Positions 1 through 58,901 of a stretch of 64,000 nt of DNA are shown one piece after another. The stretch covers positions 32,589-96,588 of the forward strand of contig JAUYHP010000008.1 in NCBI GenBank assembly GCA_030689595.1. Reading direction: 5' to 3'. The position numbers and the translations under genes were made by a program. Source of the DNA: a bacterium (GTDB lineage: Bacteria > Patescibacteriota > Minisyncoccia > UBA6257 > WO2-44-18). Each line of letters opens with the position of its first letter. Within the stretch, counting starts at the first letter, position 1. The notes beneath the pieces were generated by a model. The model searched no databases and was not told the origin of the DNA. It saw only the letters and a program-made list of their open reading frames with translations.

Positions 1-1323
1 GAAGGTCTGCACGTTCCCACTGATATAGAGGATCCAAATCAACCAGAAAATCTTATCTGCAATGTTAGAAAATATACCAGCGGGACTTTGGCTCGCTCAC
101 CAGCTACGACCTATTTTTTAGAAAACTTCGAATATTACGAAAAGCGCGCCAATGTATATGGGTATAACGACGACTCTGTTCGATGGGCGCTCTTGTGCCG
201 TGGTGTTTTAGAATTTTTGCGTCGATCTAAGTGGGTGCCTGATGTGATTGTTTCTGCCGATTGGCAAATTGGCATACTTCCAAATTACTTAAAGACGATT
301 TATAAAGAGGACCAAGTCTTAAGTAAAATTGCTACGGTATTTTCCATACACAATCTTTTTTATCAAGGCCTATTTGATCATCACTTTGTGAACGAAATGG
401 ATGATGACGATGGCAAGTCATCGGTGCCATCATTTTTCGACCCGCGTCTCTTAAAAATTAATGGCATGCGCCGCGGTATAATGTATGCGGATATAATTAA
501 TACTGTTTCGCCAACTTACGCCCGTGAAATTATGACCAAGGAATACGGCGAACTACTTGATGGTCTTTTGCGCGAGCGGAGATCCCGTGTTTACGGAGTT
601 ATTAATGGCATTGACTACGAGGTGTTTAACCCGGAAACCAACCCCCATCTTGCCAAGAGTTTCGATGCCAATTCTTTAAAAAAACGCTCAGCCAACAAGC
701 TGGAGTTGCAAGCTCGTTTTGGTTTGCCGAAAGATGAAAAGGCTTTCGTTGTTAGTATTGTGGCGCGGCTAACTGAACAAAAAGGGCTCGATCTTTTGTT
801 GCCAGTAGCGGAGGCACTGCTTAAAGAAACTCCCATGCAATTGGTTGTTTTGGGGTCCGGTGAAGCAAAGTATATGAGCTTTTTTCAGGATTTGGAGAAG
901 AAACATCCAAAAAGAGTGGCTGCCCATCTTTCTTTCGACTTTGACCTGCCGCATTTGGTTTATGCTGGAGCAGACGTCGTCTTAATACCTTCAAGGTTTG
1001 AGCCATCTGGATTAAGCCAGATGGAGGCGATGCGGTATGGATGCATCCCCATCGCTAGAAAAACCGGTGGGCTAGCCGATACGGTAGAGGACTATGACCC
1101 ACAGAATAAAACAGGTTTGGGGTTTGTGTTTAATTCATTTGATTCTATATCATTGGTTGTCGCTATGATGCGAGCCTATGAGATTTATCGTAATCCGGAG
1201 GTCTGGCAAAAGATTCAGCAACGAGCAATGAATAGAGATTTTTCTTGGAAGCAATCTGCTGCTGATTACGGAAAATTATTTGAAACTGCGAAAGCGATTC
1301 ATGGGCGTGAGGTAAAAGAATGA
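1..1323 (+). CDS. glgA: Glycogen/starch synthase (GT5), 5'-truncated by the window edge
   Basis: The frame is open from position 1, and the first M at 88 is internal. The C-terminal KTGGLADTV and SRFEPSGLSQMEAMRYG motifs are typical of GlgA. A full-length paralog lies 1.4 kb downstream. Confidence 0.7.
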   Translation, partial: EGLHVPTDIEDPNQPENLICNVRKYTSGTLARSPATTYFLENFEYYEKRANVYGYNDDSVRWALLCRGVLEFLRRSKWVPDVIVSADWQIGILPNYLKTIYKEDQVLSKIATVFSIHNLFYQGLFDHHFVNEMDDDDGKSSVPSFFDPRLLKINGMRRGIMYADIINTVSPTYAREIMTKEYGELLDGLLRERRSRVYGVINGIDYEVFNPETNPHLAKSFDANSLKKRSANKLELQARFGLPKDEKAFVVSIVARLTEQKGLDLLLPVAEALLKETPMQLVVLGSGEAKYMSFFQDLEKKHPKRVAAHLSFDFDLPHLVYAGADVVLIPSRFEPSGLSQMEAMRYGCIPIARKTGGLADTVEDYDPQNKTGLGFVFNSFDSISLVVAMMRAYEIYRNPEVWQKIQQRAMNRDFSWKQSAADYGKLFETAKAIHGREVKE

Positions 1324-1324
1324 C

Positions 1325-2728
1325 ATGTATTGGGCGAACTTTTTACATATTTACCAGCCGCCGACACAGAAGCCATTTTGGATACATAAAATTGCTAACG
1401 AGTCATATCGACCGATATTTAAACAACTAAAAGAATTTCCTAATGCCAAGTTGACGCTGAACGTTAACGGGATTCTTTTAGAACATTTTGATAAATATGG
1501 CGAAGACGATATTTTACTATCGATAAAAGAATTGCTGGCCAATGGTCAATTAGAGCTAACCGGTAGCGCCAAGTATCATCCCTTGCTCCCATTTTTGCCG
1601 GAGAAAGAAATAGTTAGACAGGTTAAGCTTAATGAAGAAACACATAGAAAATATTTCGGCGACCTATATAAGCCTAAGGGCTTTTTTCCTCCAGAAATGG
1701 GGTTTTCAAAAGATGTGGCTAAAATTATCAAGAAACTCGGCTATGAGTGGGTTATTGTCGATGAATTGTCTTTCCCTAAGGAAAAATGGCCAGTCGATTA
1801 TTCAAAAATATACACCGTAGAAGGCCTGGGAGACTTCAAAATATTTTTTAGAGAAAGGCGTATGAGTTGGATTATTCTATCTGGCCAAGTGGGCACGGGC
1901 AATTTGTTAGTACAAGGATTGGGCGATCGGTTAAACCGGCAAGAATATCTTTTAACGGCTATGGATGGCGAAACATTTGGCCACCACCGGCCTGGCTTGG
2001 ACCATCTTTTATTCGAGATATACAAGAGCCAAGATTTGCAGACAATTTTAATTTCTGATTTGCTCAACAATTTTTCCGATACTGAGGCAGTTGACCCAAC
2101 TCCATCTACTTGGGCTTTGATGGCTAAGGACTTGGAAGAAAATAAGCCATTTTCTCGGTGGAAAGATGAAAATAATGCGATACATAAGATGCAGTGGGAG
2201 CTGACAGATTTAGCCGTCGATGTAATAGAGAAAACTCCAGAAAATAGTCCAGGCTATGAAGCGGCGCGCATTAAGCTAGACGGCGCATTACACTCCGATC
2301 AATATTGGTGGGCATCCGCCAAGCCTTGGTGGAGCATAGAAATGATCGAGAGAGGAGCCAAAGAGCTCCAGGACTCTATTTTGACTGCGCCGAATGCTAC
2401 CAGCGAAGCTAAGGAAAAAGCTGAAAAACTATATCAAAAAATTATTTTTACTGCCTTTGATTGGCAGCGCGAGGGGGTGGTTGATGCTCTATCTCACTCC
2501 GAAGACGAAGAGATTAGGCAGCGTACTGATACTGGCGTACCACAATTGCCCAAGAAGGAAGTAAATAAGATGATTGTTAATCTGCAAAAAGAAATGACTT
2601 TGCTAGTAGAGCGTCAGGAATTTGAGCGGGCTGCGCAACTTAGGAATCGTATAGCAGAGCTTAAGCAATATAGTGAGCGAGTCGATGCCCCACAATTTTC
2701 GACGGAAGGAGAGCAAGAATGGCAATGA
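1325..2728 (+). CDS. GH57-family glycoside hydrolase (glycogen branching enzyme or amylase-like) with a C-terminal UVR domain
   Basis: All five GH57 signature regions are present: HIYQP, GQLELTGS, FFPPEMGFS (nucleophile Glu), AMDGETFGHH (acid/base Asp), and a downstream W-rich region. The C-terminal QEFERAAQLRNRIAELKQ matches a UvrB/UvrC-type UVR motif. Confidence 0.7.
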   Translation: MYWANFLHIYQPPTQKPFWIHKIANESYRPIFKQLKEFPNAKLTLNVNGILLEHFDKYGEDDILLSIKELLANGQLELTGSAKYHPLLPFLPEKEIVRQVKLNEETHRKYFGDLYKPKGFFPPEMGFSKDVAKIIKKLGYEWVIVDELSFPKEKWPVDYSKIYTVEGLGDFKIFFRERRMSWIILSGQVGTGNLLVQGLGDRLNRQEYLLTAMDGETFGHHRPGLDHLLFEIYKSQDLQTILISDLLNNFSDTEAVDPTPSTWALMAKDLEENKPFSRWKDENNAIHKMQWELTDLAVDVIEKTPENSPGYEAARIKLDGALHSDQYWWASAKPWWSIEMIERGAKELQDSILTAPNATSEAKEKAEKLYQKIIFTAFDWQREGVVDALSHSEDEEIRQRTDTGVPQLPKKEVNKMIVNLQKEMTLLVERQEFERAAQLRNRIAELKQYSERVDAPQFSTEGEQEWQ

Positions 2729-4068
2729 AGATATTATTTGTCGCTTCGGAATTAACACCGTTAGCCAAGGTTGGGGGGTTGGGCGATGTAATCGGGAGCT
2801 TGCCCAAGGCGCTTAATAAAACTGGCCTCAAATTAGCCGTCATCATGCCAAAGTACGCGGCTATTGATAATAAAAAATGGCGGCTTAAAAAGATTCTCGA
2901 ATTTGTAGAAAGTGGCGAAAAGCTCACGGTTTATAAAACAACCATTCCTAAAAGTTTGGTGCCAGTTTATCTAGTTGAAAATAAAAAATATATAAGTCGC
3001 GGACCAATATATTTCCAAAAAACAGCTTTTGCCGGATCGAAAAGAGAGATAGACCGATTTGTATTTTTTTCAAAGGCTGTTTATAAAATGTTAAAAGAGC
3101 GCTTTATCGATGCCGATATCGTCCATTGTCACGATTGGCACACCGGGGCACTAGTTAGATCATTGAGATTTTCTGACGTGGGGCCACAAACTATATTTAC
3201 AATTCATAATTTGGCCAACCAGGGCAAATCAGGCAGATTTAATGGAATGAGGGAGGGTATAAATAATGCCGATATGGTAACTACGGTAAGCCCAACTTAT
3301 GCCAAAGAAATTACAACCAAAAAATATAGCGTTGGGTTGGAGCAGATTTTGAGGAAAAGAGCGCGACAGGGCAAGCTCGTTGGCATTATTAACGGCATAG
3401 ACATAGGATTTTTTGACCCACAAAAGGATAATATGATAGATCACAAATATTCTTCTTCAACACTTGCTAGAAAAAACAAAAATAAAATCACTCTACAAAA
3501 GATCAGCAAATTAAAAGTAGACCATAAGGCCCCGATTTTTGGGTTGGTATCCCGCCTAACAGCACAAAAGGGCATCATGCTAATCCCGCCGATTGTTAGC
3601 GAGCACGTCGAAAAGCATAATGCTCAGTTTGTGTTTTTAGGAACCGGTTCGAAATCCCATGAGGAAAAATTACTAGAGTTGGCCAAAAGATATCCTCAAA
3701 ATGTATCGACGAATATTCTGTTTGATGAGGTCATGGCACATAAAATTTATGCTGGCTGCGATTTTTTTCTTATGCCTTCACGTTTTGAGCCAAGCGGCTT
3801 AGGCCAGATGATTTCAATGCGTTATGGTACTCCGCCAATAGTTCGAGTTACTGGTGGCTTGAAAGATACTGTCAGACATTTGGAGACGGGCTTTATGTTC
3901 CAAAAGGAATCAGCAGCAGCGCTAAAAAAAGCGACCGAAGCTGCGATTGCTATTTTAAGAGACGAGAAACTGTATCGGCAGATGCAGCGGCGTTGCATGA
4001 AGGAAGATTTTAGTTGGGACAAATCAGCAGCTAAATATAAAGAGATTTATCAAAAGATGTTAAAATGA
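2719..4068 (+). CDS. glgA: Glycogen synthase
   Basis: Canonical N-terminus MKILFVASELTPLAKVGGLGDV, with C-terminal FLMPSRFEPSGLGQM and VTGGLKDTV. The start overlaps the previous gene by 10 nt. Confidence 0.8.
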   Translation: MAMKILFVASELTPLAKVGGLGDVIGSLPKALNKTGLKLAVIMPKYAAIDNKKWRLKKILEFVESGEKLTVYKTTIPKSLVPVYLVENKKYISRGPIYFQKTAFAGSKREIDRFVFFSKAVYKMLKERFIDADIVHCHDWHTGALVRSLRFSDVGPQTIFTIHNLANQGKSGRFNGMREGINNADMVTTVSPTYAKEITTKKYSVGLEQILRKRARQGKLVGIINGIDIGFFDPQKDNMIDHKYSSSTLARKNKNKITLQKISKLKVDHKAPIFGLVSRLTAQKGIMLIPPIVSEHVEKHNAQFVFLGTGSKSHEEKLLELAKRYPQNVSTNILFDEVMAHKIYAGCDFFLMPSRFEPSGLGQMISMRYGTPPIVRVTGGLKDTVRHLETGFMFQKESAAALKKATEAAIAILRDEKLYRQMQRRCMKEDFSWDKSAAKYKEIYQKMLK

Positions 4069-31711: not shown

Positions 31712-33556
31712 ATGCAATTACGAAATATAGCAATTATCGCGCACGTAGATCACGGCAAGACAACGCTAGTTGATTCGCTGTTAAAACAGTCTATTAGCTT
31801 TTCTGCTAAAGCTGGTGGCAACGACCATGCGGCAAGCACCAAATATCAATTTGAAGAATTGATTATGGATTCCAACGAGCTTGAGAGAGAGCGCGGCATT
31901 ACAATTTTTTCTAAAAATGCTTCTGTAAAATATGGCGATGTTAAAATTAATATCGTTGATACTCCAGGTCACGCTGATTTTGGCGGTGAAGTAGAGCGTA
32001 TCATGCGCATGGTTGATGGCGTGCTTTTATTGGTAGACGCCAAAGAGGGCCCCATGCCTCAAACCAAATTCGTTTTGCGAAAAGCCATACAGGCAGGACA
32101 TAAAATAATTGTTGTTATTAATAAGATTGACAAACCAGATACGCGCGCTAAATGGGTTCTAAATGCTGTTTATGATTTATTTTTCGAGCTTGATGCGAGC
32201 GCAGAGCAAATTGAATTTCCAGTTATTTATGCTTCAGCGGCACAAGGCAAGGCTGGTTTAGATGATAATTTAGCAGCTATGCAGAACGTTCAGCCAATCT
32301 TCGAAACTATTTTAAAATACATACCGACGCCAACAATCGACAAGTCCAAGCCGCTTCAAGCCCTAACGGTTAATTTGGCTTACGACAACTATAAAGGCAA
32401 AATTGCCATTGGCCGTCTTTATTCTGGCATATTAAAAAAGGGCATGGCGGTTGCTCATATTAATCGCGCTGGCGAAATAAAGCGCGCCGCCTTAAGTTCT
32501 GTAATGCTTTTTGATGGGCTTAGCAGAATTGATGTTGATGAAGCGCACCCAGGGGATATAGTGGCAGTCGCTGGCATCCCAGATATTTCCATCGGTGAAA
32601 CCATCGCTGATTTAGAAAATCCAATCGCACTGCCAACTATTCAAATTGATGAGCCAACCATAAAAATGACTTTTGGAGTTAATACTTCAACCTTCAAGGG
32701 TAAAGAAGGGGAGTACACCACTTCAAGAAACATCAAGGAGCGCCTCATGCACGAGCTAGAAACCGACGTCGCCCTCTCCGTGGCTGATACTTCGTCGGCT
32801 GATCGCTGGGTGGTAGCTGGACGAGGCGAATTGCACTTGGCGATTTTGATTGAAAAAATGCGTCGCGAAGGATTTGAGCTAGAGGTTTCCAAGCCACAAG
32901 TAATTTTTAAAGAAGTGGCTGGCAAAAAAATGGAACCCATGGAGCTAGCCTCAATTGAGGTTCCTGAAATATATGCCGGTGTCGTTATCGAGATGATGGG
33001 GAAGTGCTCTGGCATTATGAAAGACATGCACGTTGATAATGGAACCAGTTATATGGATTTTGCCGTCCCAACGCGAGGCCTAATAGGCACACGTGGAGCT
33101 TTCGCAACTAATACCAAAGGCACTGGTATTATCAATACAATATTTTTAGGATACGAAGAATATAAAGGCGAAATTCGGCCAGAAACTAGGGGATCAATTG
33201 TATCTACTGAAACTGGGATATCCAACAACTTCGGCCTAGTAGCGGCACAGGGGCGTGGTAAATTATTTATCGGAGCCGGCGTTGCGGTCTATGAGGGCAT
33301 GGTGGTGGGTCAAAACGCCAAGGCTGGAGACATCCCAGTTAATGTCTGCAAAACAAAAGAATTGACCAATTTTAGAGCCAAGAATGATGGGCTACAAGAA
33401 CAACTTGAAGTGCCACTAGCACTCACACTCGAAGACGCCCTTAGTTATATTAGCGATGATGAAATGGTGGAAATTACACCTAAAAACCTTCGCATCAGAA
33501 AAACCTTACTTACAGATAACGAACGCCGCAAGGTCAAGAAACAGGAAAAGAATTAA
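31712..33556 (+). CDS. typA: Translational GTPase TypA/BipA
   Basis: [17 protein letters not shown] and DTPGHADFGGEVER. The start is taken at MQLRN; a terminator-like hairpin lies just upstream. Confidence 0.85.
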   Translation: MQLRNIAIIAHVDHGKTTLVDSLLKQSISFSAKAGGNDHAASTKYQFEELIMDSNELERERGITIFSKNASVKYGDVKINIVDTPGHADFGGEVERIMRMVDGVLLLVDAKEGPMPQTKFVLRKAIQAGHKIIVVINKIDKPDTRAKWVLNAVYDLFFELDASAEQIEFPVIYASAAQGKAGLDDNLAAMQNVQPIFETILKYIPTPTIDKSKPLQALTVNLAYDNYKGKIAIGRLYSGILKKGMAVAHINRAGEIKRAALSSVMLFDGLSRIDVDEAHPGDIVAVAGIPDISIGETIADLENPIALPTIQIDEPTIKMTFGVNTSTFKGKEGEYTTSRNIKERLMHELETDVALSVADTSSADRWVVAGRGELHLAILIEKMRREGFELEVSKPQVIFKEVAGKKMEPMELASIEVPEIYAGVVIEMMGKCSGIMKDMHVDNGTSYMDFAVPTRGLIGTRGAFATNTKGTGIINTIFLGYEEYKGEIRPETRGSIVSTETGISNNFGLVAAQGRGKLFIGAGVAVYEGMVVGQNAKAGDIPVNVCKTKELTNFRAKNDGLQEQLEVPLALTLEDALSYISDDEMVEITPKNLRIRKTLLTDNERRKVKKQEKN

Positions 33557-33559
33557 AAG

Positions 33560-34537
33560 CTATTCGGCTGACGCGATTTTTTCAGATTTGATCTTATCTA
33601 AAATCTTTCTTACCGACTTTAAGCTTTCGTCGTCATATATGGAAATCGCTATTGCGCTCGGGTTAATCTTTTTCAAAGTTTTCAAAGCGTTTTTTGATTG
33701 CTCTTCCGATACCGCGTCGCTTTTTGAAAGGAAAAGATATTCCGGCTTGGCCAGCAGCGGCTTTTTATAATCGCCTAATTCTTTGCGGATTGTTTTATAG
33801 TCTTTTTCGGGGTCGGGGGATTCGGCTGAAATAAAATGAAACAACATTTTAGTTCTTTCAATGTGTCGTAAAAATTTTATACCCAATCCTTTGCCAGTAG
33901 CCGAGCCCTCGATAAGCCCAGGTATGTCGGCAATGATCAATTCGTAATAAACGCCAAGGTTCGGCTCTAGTGTGGTAAAAGAGTAATTCGCCACCTTGCT
34001 ATTCGCGTTGGTCAATTCATTTAAAAGGCTGGACTTGCCAACGTTGGGGAGCCCAACAAAGCCTACGTCGGCTAGAAATTTAAGCTCTAATCTCAACTCA
34101 AAAGATTGGCCCGGCAAGCCGAATTGAAATTTTTTGGGGCTGGTGTTAGTGGGGGATCGGAAATGAAAATTGCCCTTGCCGCCCCTGCCGCCACTGGCCA
34201 AAAGTATCTGTTCGCCGATTTTAATAATCTCTGACTCGTCTTCTGTCGTTAGATTATGAATCACAGTTCCAACAGGTAGTTTTAGTAATAAATCTTTACC
34301 GTCGTGACCGTCTCTAAATTGACCACGGCCATCTAGGCCGTTTTCAGCCAAAATTTCTTTTTTGAAACGAAACTGATTGAGTGCGCTAAGGTCTGATACG
34401 CCTTCGGCATAAATACTGCCGCCTTGGCCGCCACTGCCACCAACAGGACCTAAGCTCATCATGTTTTTATTAAAAGACACGGCGCCTTTACCGCCGTCTC
34501 CTGCCGAAATTTTAATTTTTACGTCATCAATAAGCAT
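33560..34537 (-). CDS. obg: GTPase Obg/CgtA (no C-terminal OCT/TGS extension)
   Basis: The Gly-rich Obg fold (GDGGKGAVSF...GGSGGQGGS) and a [12 protein letters not shown]-domain. The start is taken at MLIDDVKI. Confidence 0.8.
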   Translation of the reverse strand: MLIDDVKIKISAGDGGKGAVSFNKNMMSLGPVGGSGGQGGSIYAEGVSDLSALNQFRFKKEILAENGLDGRGQFRDGHDGKDLLLKLPVGTVIHNLTTEDESEIIKIGEQILLASGGRGGKGNFHFRSPTNTSPKKFQFGLPGQSFELRLELKFLADVGFVGLPNVGKSSLLNELTNANSKVANYSFTTLEPNLGVYYELIIADIPGLIEGSATGKGLGIKFLRHIERTKMLFHFISAESPDPEKDYKTIRKELGDYKKPLLAKPEYLFLSKSDAVSEEQSKNALKTLKKINPSAIAISIYDDESLKSVRKILDKIKSEKIASAE

Positions 34538-34565
34538 AAGTTTTAGAACCACAATAATACCATGT

Positions 34566-34871
34566 ATGTTTGAGCTTGACAAATCTAATAGGTTTGATAA
34601 TGATGCGCTCGCTCATCTCTTAACACGTTTATATACAAATACCGTCATTACCTGTATTGATTCGTACAGTGTGGAGGTCCAACTTCCGGATCCGTTATCC
34701 TCGCGGATAATGTACAATGGAGAATATGAGCGTATGTGGCTGCTTGTAAAGCTTGGCAAGCTTTACATCCTAGCGCATCCTAAGCTTCACGGCGATAAGG
34801 TCATGAAGTTCGCCGACACCGAAGCTGGTGTACGACATTTCAGTGCCGATGGAATCGAGTTGGAGCAGTAA
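34566..34871 (+). CDS. Small hypothetical protein
   Basis: About 101 aa from MFELDK. It is divergent from obg and followed by a strong terminator. Confidence 0.35.
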   Translation: MFELDKSNRFDNDALAHLLTRLYTNTVITCIDSYSVEVQLPDPLSSRIMYNGEYERMWLLVKLGKLYILAHPKLHGDKVMKFADTEAGVRHFSADGIELEQ

Positions 34872-34879
34872 TCCACCAA

Positions 34880-34922
34880 GGCCCGTTCAAAGTTTTTATC
34901 CTGAACGGGTCTTTTTTATTTT
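34880..34922 (+). terminator. Rho-independent terminator
   Basis: CCCGTTCA-loop-TGAACGGG then TCTTTTTTATTTT. Confidence 0.7.
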
Positions 34923-35013
34923 AACTTTGCTTCTACACTGTTGCTTGAAAATCATGTTTTGACAATGTGGGGGGTATATAGTAGAGTGCATCTTTGGCGG
35001 AGGAATCAATAAT

Positions 35014-35520
35014 ATGACTAATTGGTTAAAACAAAATTGGTTTAAAATAGGCATGATAGTTGCCGTTTTATTGGCGGCATATATTATTTCTATCGCCGTT
35101 TATTTAATTGATCCGCAGTCAGTATCTGGTAAAAACCAAAAATGCGCCAACGGAGTATCAAGAATCCAAAGAGAAATGAGAAAAACGGCTACGCCAACCT
35201 GGAACGAACAGTTGCAGGAAATCTTCTATTCACCAGATTATGGCACTTGTTTATATGTTAGTGATGTTGATAATAGGACCAACTACGGTATATCTTGGCG
35301 GATATTAAAACGATTGGTTGACTATCGTTCAGGAATTCCTGGGAGTCCATTGGAAAGCTGCCAATATCCAGTTGAATCTTTGATGGTTATTGCCGAAACT
35401 AGAGCTATAGAAATGAACAACGAAGATGTGTTAAATCTTATCGCAGAAGATAGAAGTAAGCCATACGAGATGTGGTGCGGATCATTTGAGGCAGAGCTTT
35501 ATAGACTTAAATATCATTAA
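35014..35520 (+). CDS. Membrane-anchored hypothetical protein
   Basis: One N-terminal TM helix. Confidence 0.4.
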   Translation: MTNWLKQNWFKIGMIVAVLLAAYIISIAVYLIDPQSVSGKNQKCANGVSRIQREMRKTATPTWNEQLQEIFYSPDYGTCLYVSDVDNRTNYGISWRILKRLVDYRSGIPGSPLESCQYPVESLMVIAETRAIEMNNEDVLNLIAEDRSKPYEMWCGSFEAELYRLKYH

Positions 35521-35815
35521 ACTTATTAATAGAGAAGTATTCGAAAAATCAGTAAGCAGAGACGCAGTTATTTGGCACATTTCAGATGCCGTAGGCGTAG
35601 TATATTCAATTTGGGCCTTATTTTTGTTTATAGACGGTGGAAGAATTGTTACTTCGATAATCGTGATTATTATAGGCATTACCATGCCCGTAGTTGCTTC
35701 ATGGGGAATGCCGTCAGGGATGCGCTCAGTTGGCCTTCAACGATTTATGATAGTTAGCGGTTTAATCATCTTATATCTACCAACTGTTTTATTGTTATTA
35801 CTGATAAAAAAATAA
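35486..35815 (+). CDS. Small membrane protein
   Basis: Three TM helices. Overlaps the end of the previous ORF. Confidence 0.35.
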   Translation: MRQSFIDLNIIKLINREVFEKSVSRDAVIWHISDAVGVVYSIWALFLFIDGGRIVTSIIVIIIGITMPVVASWGMPSGMRSVGLQRFMIVSGLIILYLPTVLLLLLIKK

Positions 35816-35889
35816 TTTCAAAAGTTTGCTAAGTAGGGGACTTGTTCTCTTTCGGGTCTTTTCCATTGTATCCGAATTTTAATTTTCCA

Positions 35890-35934
35890 CCAGAGAAATA
35901 AAAAGCCCTCGGCGCGATGTTGCCACGCCGAGGG
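35890..35934 (-). terminator. Rho-independent terminator of the tRNA-Gln transcript
   Basis: Read on the minus strand: GCCCTCGGCG-11 nt loop-CGCCGAGGGC then TTTTTATTTCT. Confidence 0.7.
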
Positions 35935-36090
35935 CGAACGATTCCAAGGAGCAAAGGTTCCCAAAGGATTCAGAAACCAAGGTCCTAAGGATCGAAGCTA
36001 CTTGCGGACGGCCGCGAACCGTTCGCCTTCCACCCAGTCGCGTCGCGTTGCGACGCTCCGAAATTTGGCGAAAACGGCGATTATATTTTT

Positions 36091-36164
36091 TGGCTGCCGG
36101 GCAGGGACTCGAACCCCGATACCACGCTCCAGAGGCGTGTGTCCTACCGTTAGACGACCCGGCA
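36091..36164 (-). tRNA. tRNA-Gln (anticodon CUG)
   Basis: The minus-strand sequence TGCCGGGTCGTCTAACGGTAGGACACACGCCTCTGGAGCGTGGTATCGGGGTTCGAGTCCCTGCCCGGCAGCCA folds into a 7-bp acceptor stem, a GGTTCGAGTCC T-arm and a CUCUGGA anticodon loop. CCA is encoded. Confidence 0.8.
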
Positions 36165-36226
36165 TCATTAGACTCAATCTTAATGTTATAATACAATTAT
36201 GGCTAGAAGCAAAAGCAAATAATTTT

Positions 36227-36841
36227 ATGCAAAAAGACTATCAACCAGAAAAATTAAAAATTGATAAAGATCTTCCAGGCTTCAGCCTTAAGGGCATCAA
36301 GGAGCATTTTAAACTTTATGAGGGTTATGTCAAAAAAACTAACGAGATCCAAAAGAAAATTGAAGATGCCGATAAGTCAGAGGCCAATGCTGTTTACAGT
36401 TATATCGGCGAATTGAAGCGCGAAGAAGTCTTTGCCATAAACGGCATTAAACTTCATGAAATTTATTTTGATCACCTTGGCGGCGATGGAAAGCCAAGTG
36501 GTGAGCTAGTAAAAATGATCGAAAGAGATTTTGGCTCGGTTGATAAATGGCGCGAAGATATGATCGCCACCGGCTTAAGTGCTCGTGGTTGGGCTATAAT
36601 GGCCTACGACCTTAAAGATAGCCAGCTCCATAATTATGGAGCTGATGCCCAAAACATTGGCGCAGTCTGGGGCGCTATTCCTATTATAGCCCTGGATGTT
36701 TATGAGCACGCTTATTTTATGGATTATGGAACCGATCGAAAATCTTATGTTAATGCCTTTTTTGAAAATCTGGATTGGAGCGTCGCCAATGCCATGATGA
36801 CTAAATATGTCACGCCATGGGAAAAGACAAAGAACCAGTAA
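36227..36841 (+). CDS. sodA: Fe/Mn superoxide dismutase
   Basis: LDVYEHAYFMDYG (the D-x-W/Y-E-H-A-Y motif) and the conserved His ligands (EHF..., LHEIYF). The start is taken at MQKDY; the longer upstream frame overlaps the tRNA. Confidence 0.8.
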   Translation: MQKDYQPEKLKIDKDLPGFSLKGIKEHFKLYEGYVKKTNEIQKKIEDADKSEANAVYSYIGELKREEVFAINGIKLHEIYFDHLGGDGKPSGELVKMIERDFGSVDKWREDMIATGLSARGWAIMAYDLKDSQLHNYGADAQNIGAVWGAIPIIALDVYEHAYFMDYGTDRKSYVNAFFENLDWSVANAMMTKYVTPWEKTKNQ

Positions 36842-58514: not shown

Positions 58515-58550
58515 AATAAAAATCCCATAGTAGTGTGAATAATGGTATAT

Positions 58551-58580
58551 AAAAAAAAACCCGAACCACTTGGTTCGGGG
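58551..58580 (-). terminator. Rho-independent terminator for the minus-strand gdh-ychF-adk-map transcript
   Basis: On the minus strand: CCCGAACCA-AG-TGGTTCGGG then TTTTTTTTT. Confidence 0.65.
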
Positions 58581-58690
58581 TTGATGCTACTTGGCCGAGG
58601 TTGTCATCAGAAACAAGCTCAACCAGTGCCGTTTCTGGTGCCCCTTCTGGAGCACGACGACACCTGCCCACTGCTCCACCGCCTTTCCTG

Positions 58691-58795
58691 TCTGCCAGGC
58701 AAGGCCGAGGAACTGAACGACATCCCCGCCAGCTTTCTGCCAGGCAAGGCCGAGGCCCTGCACGGCATCCGCACTAGCACTCTGCCAGGCCATGA
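58691..58795. repeat. GC-rich 45-bp tandem repeat (about 2.3 copies)
   Basis: CTGCCAGGCAAGGCCGAGG recurs at 58691 and 58736, and a partial copy at 58781. Local GC is about 60%, against a roughly 42% background. Confidence 0.6.
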
Positions 58796-58901
58796 CTACC
58801 TCCAATACAACGGTGGACAGTGAAGTGATTAAACTTTGTTTAGGTACTGGGGCTAGTATATCATAAATATGTGAGGTTTGTCAAGGGGGACAAGTATTAA
58901 C

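Follow-up and report, generated by a model that had tools for sequence, protein, structure and literature searches.

Within the window (the whole stretch of DNA analysed, 64,000 nt in length), we identified a tRNA-Gln gene with the anticodon CUG on the minus strand (36091-36164), which was called by ARAGORN and scored 56.1 bits against the Rfam tRNA model RF00005 (threshold 29) and 89.9 bits against R1, a clade-specific covariance model based on 21 tRNA-Gln genes. The CCA of this tRNA is encoded in the genome (36091-36093). On the same strand, 155 nt (35936-36090; hereafter, the tail) separate the tRNA from the stem of an intrinsic terminator, which consists of a G+C-rich stem-loop at 35905-35935 (13 pairs, 10 of these G-C, with a loop of 5 nt) directly followed by the U-tract UUUUUAUUUC (T-run TTTTTATTTC at 35895-35904). 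The scan of 35400-36600 returned this one terminator-like site only, on the minus strand, and none between tRNA-Gln and 35905-35935, so that tRNA-Gln and the tail would naturally be read as co-transcribed. The features of the locus are the following:

36091-36164, minus strand: tRNA-Gln, anticodon CUG, CCA encoded (ARAGORN; RF00005; R1)
36057-36090, minus strand: A/U-rich linker AAAAAUAUAAUCGCCGUUUUCGCCAAAUUUCGGA directly after the CCA (sequence; MFE folds)
36040-36056, minus strand: perfect 7-bp hairpin GCGUCGC-AAC-GCGACGC (MFE folds; sequence)
36014-36026, minus strand: short palindrome GCGAACGGUUCGC, realistically 5 bp with a 3-nt loop, used inconsistently by the two MFE predictions
35939-35994, minus strand: 3' domain, an imperfect hairpin with the base CGAUCC/GGAAUCG (folds)
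35895-35935, minus strand: intrinsic terminator, 13-bp stem with 10 G-C pairs, 5-nt loop, then the U-tract (terminator scan)
35014-35815, plus strand: two ORFans of 168 and 109 amino acids, convergent, with no match in Pfam, PHROGs or NCBIfam

Compositionally, the tail is anomalous: the GC content of 35936-36079 is 56.9%, compared with a mean of 42.5% for the window and with 24% and 37% in the adjacent spacers, and only 0.66% of the 144-nt windows in the 64 kb reach this value. An earlier note on this DNA, made by inspection of the letters, had described a tRNA-Gln(CUG) on the minus strand that is followed, all on the same strand, by a tail of 55-60% GC and one strong terminator, and this layout proved correct. 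The terminator, for which the note gave a 10-bp stem at 35890-35934, is near enough to the 13-bp stem found here, and the stated tail length of about 170 nt becomes about 155 nt when counted to the terminator stem and about 195 nt when counted to the end of the T-run.

As read on the tRNA strand, the linker starts with AAAAAUAUAAU, and both MFE folds (with and without the terminator) leave the initial 10-12 nt unpaired. Inside the linker lies a perfect TATAAT (36080-36085), which is absent from the output of the promoter scan and has no -35 match. The linker is a possible entry site for an endonuclease or a possible weak internal -10 box. The best sigma-70-like match of the region is found elsewhere (TTGACA-16-TAAAAT, 11/12, at 36306-36333 on the minus strand), antisense within the coding region of a superoxide dismutase (SOD) gene and about 140 nt upstream of the tRNA; if a promoter were active here, transcripts of the tRNA would carry a long 5' leader, antisense to the beginning of the SOD mRNA.

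The two ORFans (35014-35520 and 35486-35815, both on the plus strand) overlap each other, and the 109-aa product of the second looks like a membrane protein. Beyond them, obg lies on the minus strand, and the ORFans and the tail together fill a lineage-specific gap between obg and tRNA-Gln. A search of 5.8 billion proteins with the 168-aa ORFan returned no homologue other than itself, so that this gene, tried as a lead for an island hypothesis, pointed to no related loci. On the other side of the tRNA, the Fe/Mn SOD gene starts at 36227, divergent from tRNA-Gln, and is followed by pilB and pilC.

Most of the tail was recovered in an independent assembly. Logan contig SRR13727534_15179 (locus L294) matches positions 32514-36066 of the window at 99.94% and ends inside the tail, 25 nt short of the tRNA, so that the sequence of the tail is reproduced up to 36066 and the last 25 nt of the tail-tRNA junction come from the MAG contig alone. 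Two differences occur in the last 20 nt of the Logan contig, one of which changes the loop of the 7-bp hairpin from AAC to AAA and the other AAAUUU to AAAAUU on the tRNA strand (AAATTT vs. AATTTT on the plus strand); these point to micro-heterogeneity in the population or to an artefact at the contig end.

Folding, RNA families and coding potential of the tail

When the terminator was included, the predicted fold of the region was more stable than those of shuffled sequences (z = -3.22). The tail alone (35938-36090) folded at -52.7 kcal/mol, compared with -47.5 +/- 4.1 kcal/mol in dinucleotide shuffles (z = -1.27); equally stable folds were obtained from 22 of 200 shuffles, and the opposite strand of the tail gave z = -1.18. 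The z-score of the complete region is owed mostly to the terminator, and the folding energy of the tail without the terminator is not clearly below that of the shuffles, as a structured non-coding RNA would require. The description of the tail as structured, given in the earlier note, accordingly does not hold beyond chance once the terminator is removed. With respect to the hairpins that the note called perfect, GCGTCGC-AAC-GCGACGC is present (36040-36056), whereas GCGAAC-G-GTTCGC would need an impossible loop of 1 nt. A perfect stem of at least 7 bp appeared in 183 of 2000 shuffles (9%), so the hairpin at 36040-36056 is not rarer than expected by chance. The tip of the 3' domain is a G-U-rich stem, GGUUUCUGAA-UCC-UUUGGGAACC (35956-35978), and the G-U pairs of the central hairpin are possible on the tRNA strand only.

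Comparison of the whole 64-kb window to Rfam 15 at the gathering score yielded the tRNA only, leaving the tail without a match. At E <= 10 with permissive filters, the 601 nt around the tail contained nothing credible, and no 6S RNA, SRP RNA, RNase P, tmRNA or riboswitch was among the matches; the tail or the terminator was overlapped only by chance-level matches, to a U4 snRNA at 12.3 bits and to an archaeal snoRNA at 9.7 bits. The suggestion that the tail could be a 6S- or SRP-like RNA thus found no Rfam match at either level.

Open frames cross the tail on both strands. These ORFs are mechanical only: they start with TTG, those in the upper tail run through the tRNA, and they have no homologues. 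No match to Pfam was found in the ORFs of the tail, and comparison of the minus-frame peptide with 1.84 billion representative proteins returned only four tandem-repeat proteins, each matched in several weak stretches. With no homologue and no family match, the tail does not qualify as a small protein gene or a pseudogene. A pseudogene of SOD was considered separately, because a similarity to SOD came up on each of the two strands: blastn aligned tail positions 99-142 with the antisense of the 5' coding region of SOD in two related loci (L010 and L086), and tblastn weakly aligned the 105-aa minus-strand ORF of the tail with SOD residues 44-125; a profile of 120 SODs was negative in all six frames, so that both alignments are attributable to chance. 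Repeats of the tail within the window were sought as well, and none was found.

A second GC-rich stretch of the window was noticed in passing. Positions 58545-58870 (minus strand) are unannotated and contain about 310 nt of 60-66% GC between two ORFs, with a tandem duplication of 45 nt at 58688-58777 and, at its end, a clean terminator, CCCGAACC-AAGU-GGUUCGGG, followed by U9. Its fold gave z = -3.93, a stability that none of 100 shuffles attained, and Rfam yielded no match to it at the gathering score or at E <= 1. This stretch is a better candidate for a non-coding RNA than the tail.

The 3' flank of tRNA-Gln in related loci

The SOD gene places the organism among the Patescibacteria/Parcubacteria, with no close relative in the databases: the exact SOD was found in one MAG contig, and the next best SOD is 77-78% identical. 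Mostly through the conserved tRNA-Gln/SOD neighbourhood, we recovered about 40 related loci from genome, metagenome and assembly collections in which the 1.6 kb or so upstream of the SOD gene include a tRNA-Gln gene, divergent from SOD in nearly all cases and co-oriented in a few. The sequence 3' of tRNA-Gln is dissimilar in nearly every one of these loci, that is, hypervariable; in the closest relative (L001, SOD 78% identical), AT-rich, coding-like sequence follows right after tRNA-Gln. Searches with blastn and nhmmer detected no homologue of the tail in the approximately 40 loci, R3 (a single-sequence covariance model made from the tail and its predicted fold) returned only the self-match over 596 kb of related loci and window, and BLAST of the tail against phage and plasmid collections gave nothing meaningful. 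Homologues with compensatory changes, the mark of a conserved non-coding RNA, were thus lacking for the tail among these relatives, all of them distant. The tail is not kept in relatives, being absent from all related tRNA-Gln loci recovered; this absence is the weaker as evidence because even the nearest relative is distant (SOD 77-78%). By the rule set out in the earlier note, an empty covariance scan combined with non-conservation in relatives leaves a simple long 3' trailer, and both were observed. The tail is probably not a conserved RNA gene.

A viral origin was considered and dropped. The pattern GGAATCGAAN{70,95}CGATTCC retrieved 120 unrelated viral contigs, none of which belongs to the 105-nt family described below, and the 17-mer hairpin GCGTCGCAACGCGACGC occurred in 8 GC-rich viral contigs in unrelated contexts, a count that we estimated to be about that expected by chance. 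A second 19-mer had no match, and an apparent extended likeness to an intergenic repeat of locus L286 was not supported by BLAST.

In many of the related loci, partial copies of tRNA-Gln lie a few tens to 170 nt beyond the intact gene. Duplicates reaching from the T-loop to the 3' end were found in L002, L003, L006, L008, L009, L023 and L095, and longer fragments starting in the D arm or the anticodon stem in L101/L102 and L120, where an insert of 23-30 nt, made up of GC-rich hairpins, sits exactly in the anticodon loop of the fragment. L095 and L023 share another type of insert (GGAAUUAYUCAAACCGAGKGGUUUGA...). In further loci, this site is occupied by accessory genes, among them GIY-YIG genes and one that is methyltransferase-like. 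An integrase beside the inserts was looked for and not found, the neighbours being prfB, ftsE, ftsX and assorted accessory genes. Positions of some of the partial copies are these:

L101, about 620-728, minus strand: partial tRNA-Gln copy (L102 has the same arrangement)
L120, about 2380-2491, minus strand: partial tRNA-Gln copy
L095, about 1760-1936, minus strand: partial tRNA-Gln copy
L023, about 3550-3749, minus strand: partial tRNA-Gln copy
L006, about 3170-3323, minus strand: partial tRNA-Gln copy

These arrangements mark the DNA 3' of tRNA-Gln as a hotspot of recombination throughout this clade of Parcubacteria.

Two further observations concern the neighbourhoods of these genes. Small genes for GIY-YIG nucleases lie beside tRNA-Gln in L010 (about 3050-3279, minus strand), L085 (about 1-123, minus strand) and L293 (1195-1434, minus strand). 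In L010 and L085, the nuclease gene comes right after the tRNA, with a conserved hairpin in front of it, whereas in L293 it immediately precedes the tRNA and shares its strand. In the SOD neighbourhood of L046 (1988-2123, plus strand), Rfam identified a LOOT RNA (RF03000, 68.9 bits), which is unrelated to the tail.

Sequence comparison revealed a GC-rich element of 105 nt with four helices that is common to four loci:

L003, 3271-3382, minus strand: 105-nt element, after tRNA-Gln
L009, 3295-3400, minus strand: 105-nt element, after tRNA-Gln
L004, 183-292, plus strand: 105-nt element, between tRNA-Gly(CCC) and tRNA-Thr
L046, 3805-3911, plus strand: 105-nt element, upstream of SOD

Its helices are a closing helix GGAAUCG/CGAUUCC, an internal helix, a hairpin with the loop CAGCAG and a hairpin with the loop UGCG or GACG. 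Across the four sequences, 88.5% of the cells are paired, compared with 30-51% when the partners are slid, and 8 pairs are altered on both sides, as compensatory changes; Rfam has no match to the element. In L003, L009 and L004, the 3' strand of the element (CGAUUCC...) leads directly into a second copy of the upstream tRNA's 3' end (Gln or Gly), which suggests that a miniature element is inserted at the T-loop and restores the end of the tRNA. The covariance model R2, built on the four helices, gives its four members 87-111 bits; the tail is not a member, with a best minus-strand score of 2.8 bits (E ~1.5) in 35500-36500, and nhmmer with the members of the 105-nt family found nothing in the window. 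Like the element, the tail is GC-rich and hairpin-rich and directly adjoins the 3' end of a tRNA within this clade, and the two have a few short words in common; unlike the element, it has neither a GGAAUCG...CGAUUCC closing helix in the right order nor a terminal duplicate of the tRNA 3' end.

We further compared the tail with the tRNA itself. Within the 3' domain of the tail (35939-35994), 23 nt bear a marginal likeness to two arms of tRNA-Gln, the D arm and the anticodon arm, with a CUG 'anticodon' among them (3.1 bits by nhmmer, E = 0.015 in 420 nt), and a gapped profile Smith-Waterman alignment of the tail with tRNA-Gln scored 19.2, a value reached by 15 of 300 shuffles (p ~0.05). R1 detected no second piece of tRNA-Gln above 3.6 bits, and with R1 empty and nhmmer and the profile alignment marginal, we rejected a second or partial tRNA-Gln in the tail; ARAGORN at a threshold of 70% added only spurious calls that overlap the real tRNA. 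The tRNA of the window was not found to have its 3' end repeated directly, as an att repeat would require, and neither was there a recombinase or mobile-element gene among the neighbours of the tail (obg, the two ORFans, SOD and pilB/pilC).

Nature and origin of the tail

We consider it somewhat more probable than otherwise (roughly 0.55) that the tail represents a 3' trailer, i.e., an external transcribed spacer, of a one-gene tRNA-Gln transcription unit, specific to this lineage and not conserved. RNA polymerase would then start upstream of the tRNA, transcribe the tRNA and about 155 nt of GC-rich DNA, and stop at the intrinsic terminator (35905-35935); the trailer would be cut at the unpaired A/U-rich linker just past the CCA, and the 3' end of the tRNA would subsequently be trimmed. 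The GC-rich DNA itself would probably be a decaying leftover of the insertion and recombination traffic that is seen 3' of tRNA-Gln in related Parcubacteria. By analogy with these relatives, it is plausible that the tail and its two ORFan neighbours are products of such traffic, because the 3' flank of tRNA-Gln is a recombination hotspot there; this origin as a scar is opposed by the lack, at this locus, of a tRNA 3' duplicate, of a fragment detected by covariance models and of a nearby integrase. In surveys of GC-rich intergenic regions, most unknown regions end up low-ranking, unnamed or classified as mobile or repeat DNA (PMC11109978, Table 1). Two observations speak against a mere trailer: a GC content of 57% is a classic signature of structured RNA and should be eroded by neutral decay, which implies that the DNA is young or maintained, and the G-U pairs of the central hairpin are, in the predicted folds, specific to the tRNA strand.

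The main rival, which we regard as a good deal less likely, takes the tail for a lineage-specific small RNA that acts in trans, is stabilised by the terminator, and is either cleaved from the tRNA-Gln precursor at the linker or transcribed from the TATAAT at 36080-36085. It would account for a GC content in the top 0.7% of the window, for the strong terminator at the end of the tail on its own strand, for the strand-specific G-U pairs and for the perfect -10 hexamer right after the tRNA, and a product acting in trans suits the absence of a same-strand downstream gene better than a leader does. Set against this are the lack of a family match, of homologues in the approximately 40 related loci or elsewhere in the window and of an identifiable target, a fold that without the terminator is no better than those of shuffles, and the TATAAT itself, which lacks a -35 element and went uncalled in the promoter scan. 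We find it improbable that the tail derives, in degenerate form, from a small GC-rich insert of the kind present at tRNA 3' ends in related Parcubacteria (e.g., the 105-nt element); it would then be the scar of a miniature mobile or integrative element that targets tRNAs and whose terminal tRNA repeat has decayed. Relatives do have such inserts at the same place, the tail shows short likenesses by eye (GUAGC(UU)CGAUCC vs. GUAGCCGAUUCC and GGAAUCG(UU)CGCC vs. GGAAUCGAACGCC), and it includes the marginal tRNA-Gln-like stretch (E = 0.015), with a score reached by 15 of 300 shuffles; but R2 scores no more than 2.8 bits for the strand of the tail, nhmmer searches of the window with members of this family were empty, R1 finds no tRNA-Gln fragment, and the 3' end of the window's tRNA is not directly repeated. 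A wider form of this idea, and in our estimate an equally doubtful one, is that the tail is a diverged member of an undescribed and heterogeneous class of small elements, rich in GC and in hairpins, which would enter Parcubacteria tRNA genes at the T-loop or the 3' end and regenerate the tRNA end, with the RNA of the tail being released from the tRNA precursor as a stable product; the covarying 105-nt element of L003, L009, L004 and L046 would be the clearest member of the proposed class.

That the tail is coding, as a small ORF, or the remnant of a protein gene, as a pseudogene fragment, is very unlikely. Frames are open across it on both strands and weak SOD-like alignments were obtained by tblastn, but the SOD profile was negative in all six frames, Pfam had no match, the 1.84 billion representatives yielded only multi-stretch matches to tandem-repeat proteins, and the ORFs start with TTG, run through the tRNA in the upper tail and lack homologues. 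We give still less credence, next to none, to a very divergent universal RNA (6S, SRP, a fragment of RNase P or a piece of tmRNA) that Rfam would have missed in Patescibacteria. Patescibacterial RNAs are indeed often divergent, and Rfam matched only the tRNA in the 64 kb; against this, nothing credible was found at E <= 10 with permissive filters in the 601 nt, the predicted fold consists of two or three short domains as opposed to the single long helix of 6S or SRP RNA, and the tail is absent from relatives, in which universal RNAs would be kept.

The tail itself matters little: it amounts to an unusually long trailer, rich in GC and closed by a clean terminator, on the tRNA gene of an uncultured bacterium that has no close relative sequenced. 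It has value for calibration, as an example of a GC-rich intergenic stretch in an AT-rich genome that can fail every test for structured RNA. The follow-up of the tail also exposed the hotspot at the 3' flank of tRNA-Gln, and the covarying 105-nt element may merit a study of its own; the element that duplicates tRNA ends in relatives and the stretch at 58545-58870 are more promising leads than the tail.

Comparison with known systems

Screens for GC-rich intergenic candidates for non-coding RNAs have been developed in the GC-IGR pipeline of the Breaker laboratory and in DIMPL (PMC11109978, PMC8723152). The tail resembles such candidates in being a long GC-rich intergenic region of an AT-rich genome, and differs from them in having a single representative, whereas several representatives and covariation are required; it would rank in the 'unnamed' class.

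The tail may also be set beside the scars of integration. Site-specific integration at tRNA genes leaves attL and attR as direct repeats of the 3' part of the tRNA, and Williams is said to have distinguished, in 2002, the anticodon loop, the T-loop and the 3' end as classes of sublocation for integration. The relatives have just such an arrangement at the same tRNA-Gln, with duplicates from the T-loop or anticodon loop to the 3' end and short foreign DNA in between. In the window, no repeat of the resident tRNA's 3' end is detectable and no integrase lies nearby, unlike in att scars; the tail does occupy the equivalent position, beside ORFan genes, an assignment made by analogy only.

The closest parallel to a trailer concerns 3'ETS-leuZ of Escherichia coli, the spacer RNA of the glyW-cysT-leuZ operon, which was reportedly presented by Lalaouna et al. 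in 2015 as a functional 3' external transcribed spacer of a tRNA. The tail is about three times longer than 3'ETS-leuZ, is much GC-richer than its surroundings and has no sequence homology to it. Like 3'ETS-leuZ, the tail fills a gene-free interval that separates the mature 3' end of a tRNA from an intrinsic terminator of the same strand, and a single-stranded A/U-rich stretch follows the tRNA. The anatomy of the locus thus has the placement of a 3'ETS, between the 3' end of the tRNA and the terminator of what would be the same transcript.
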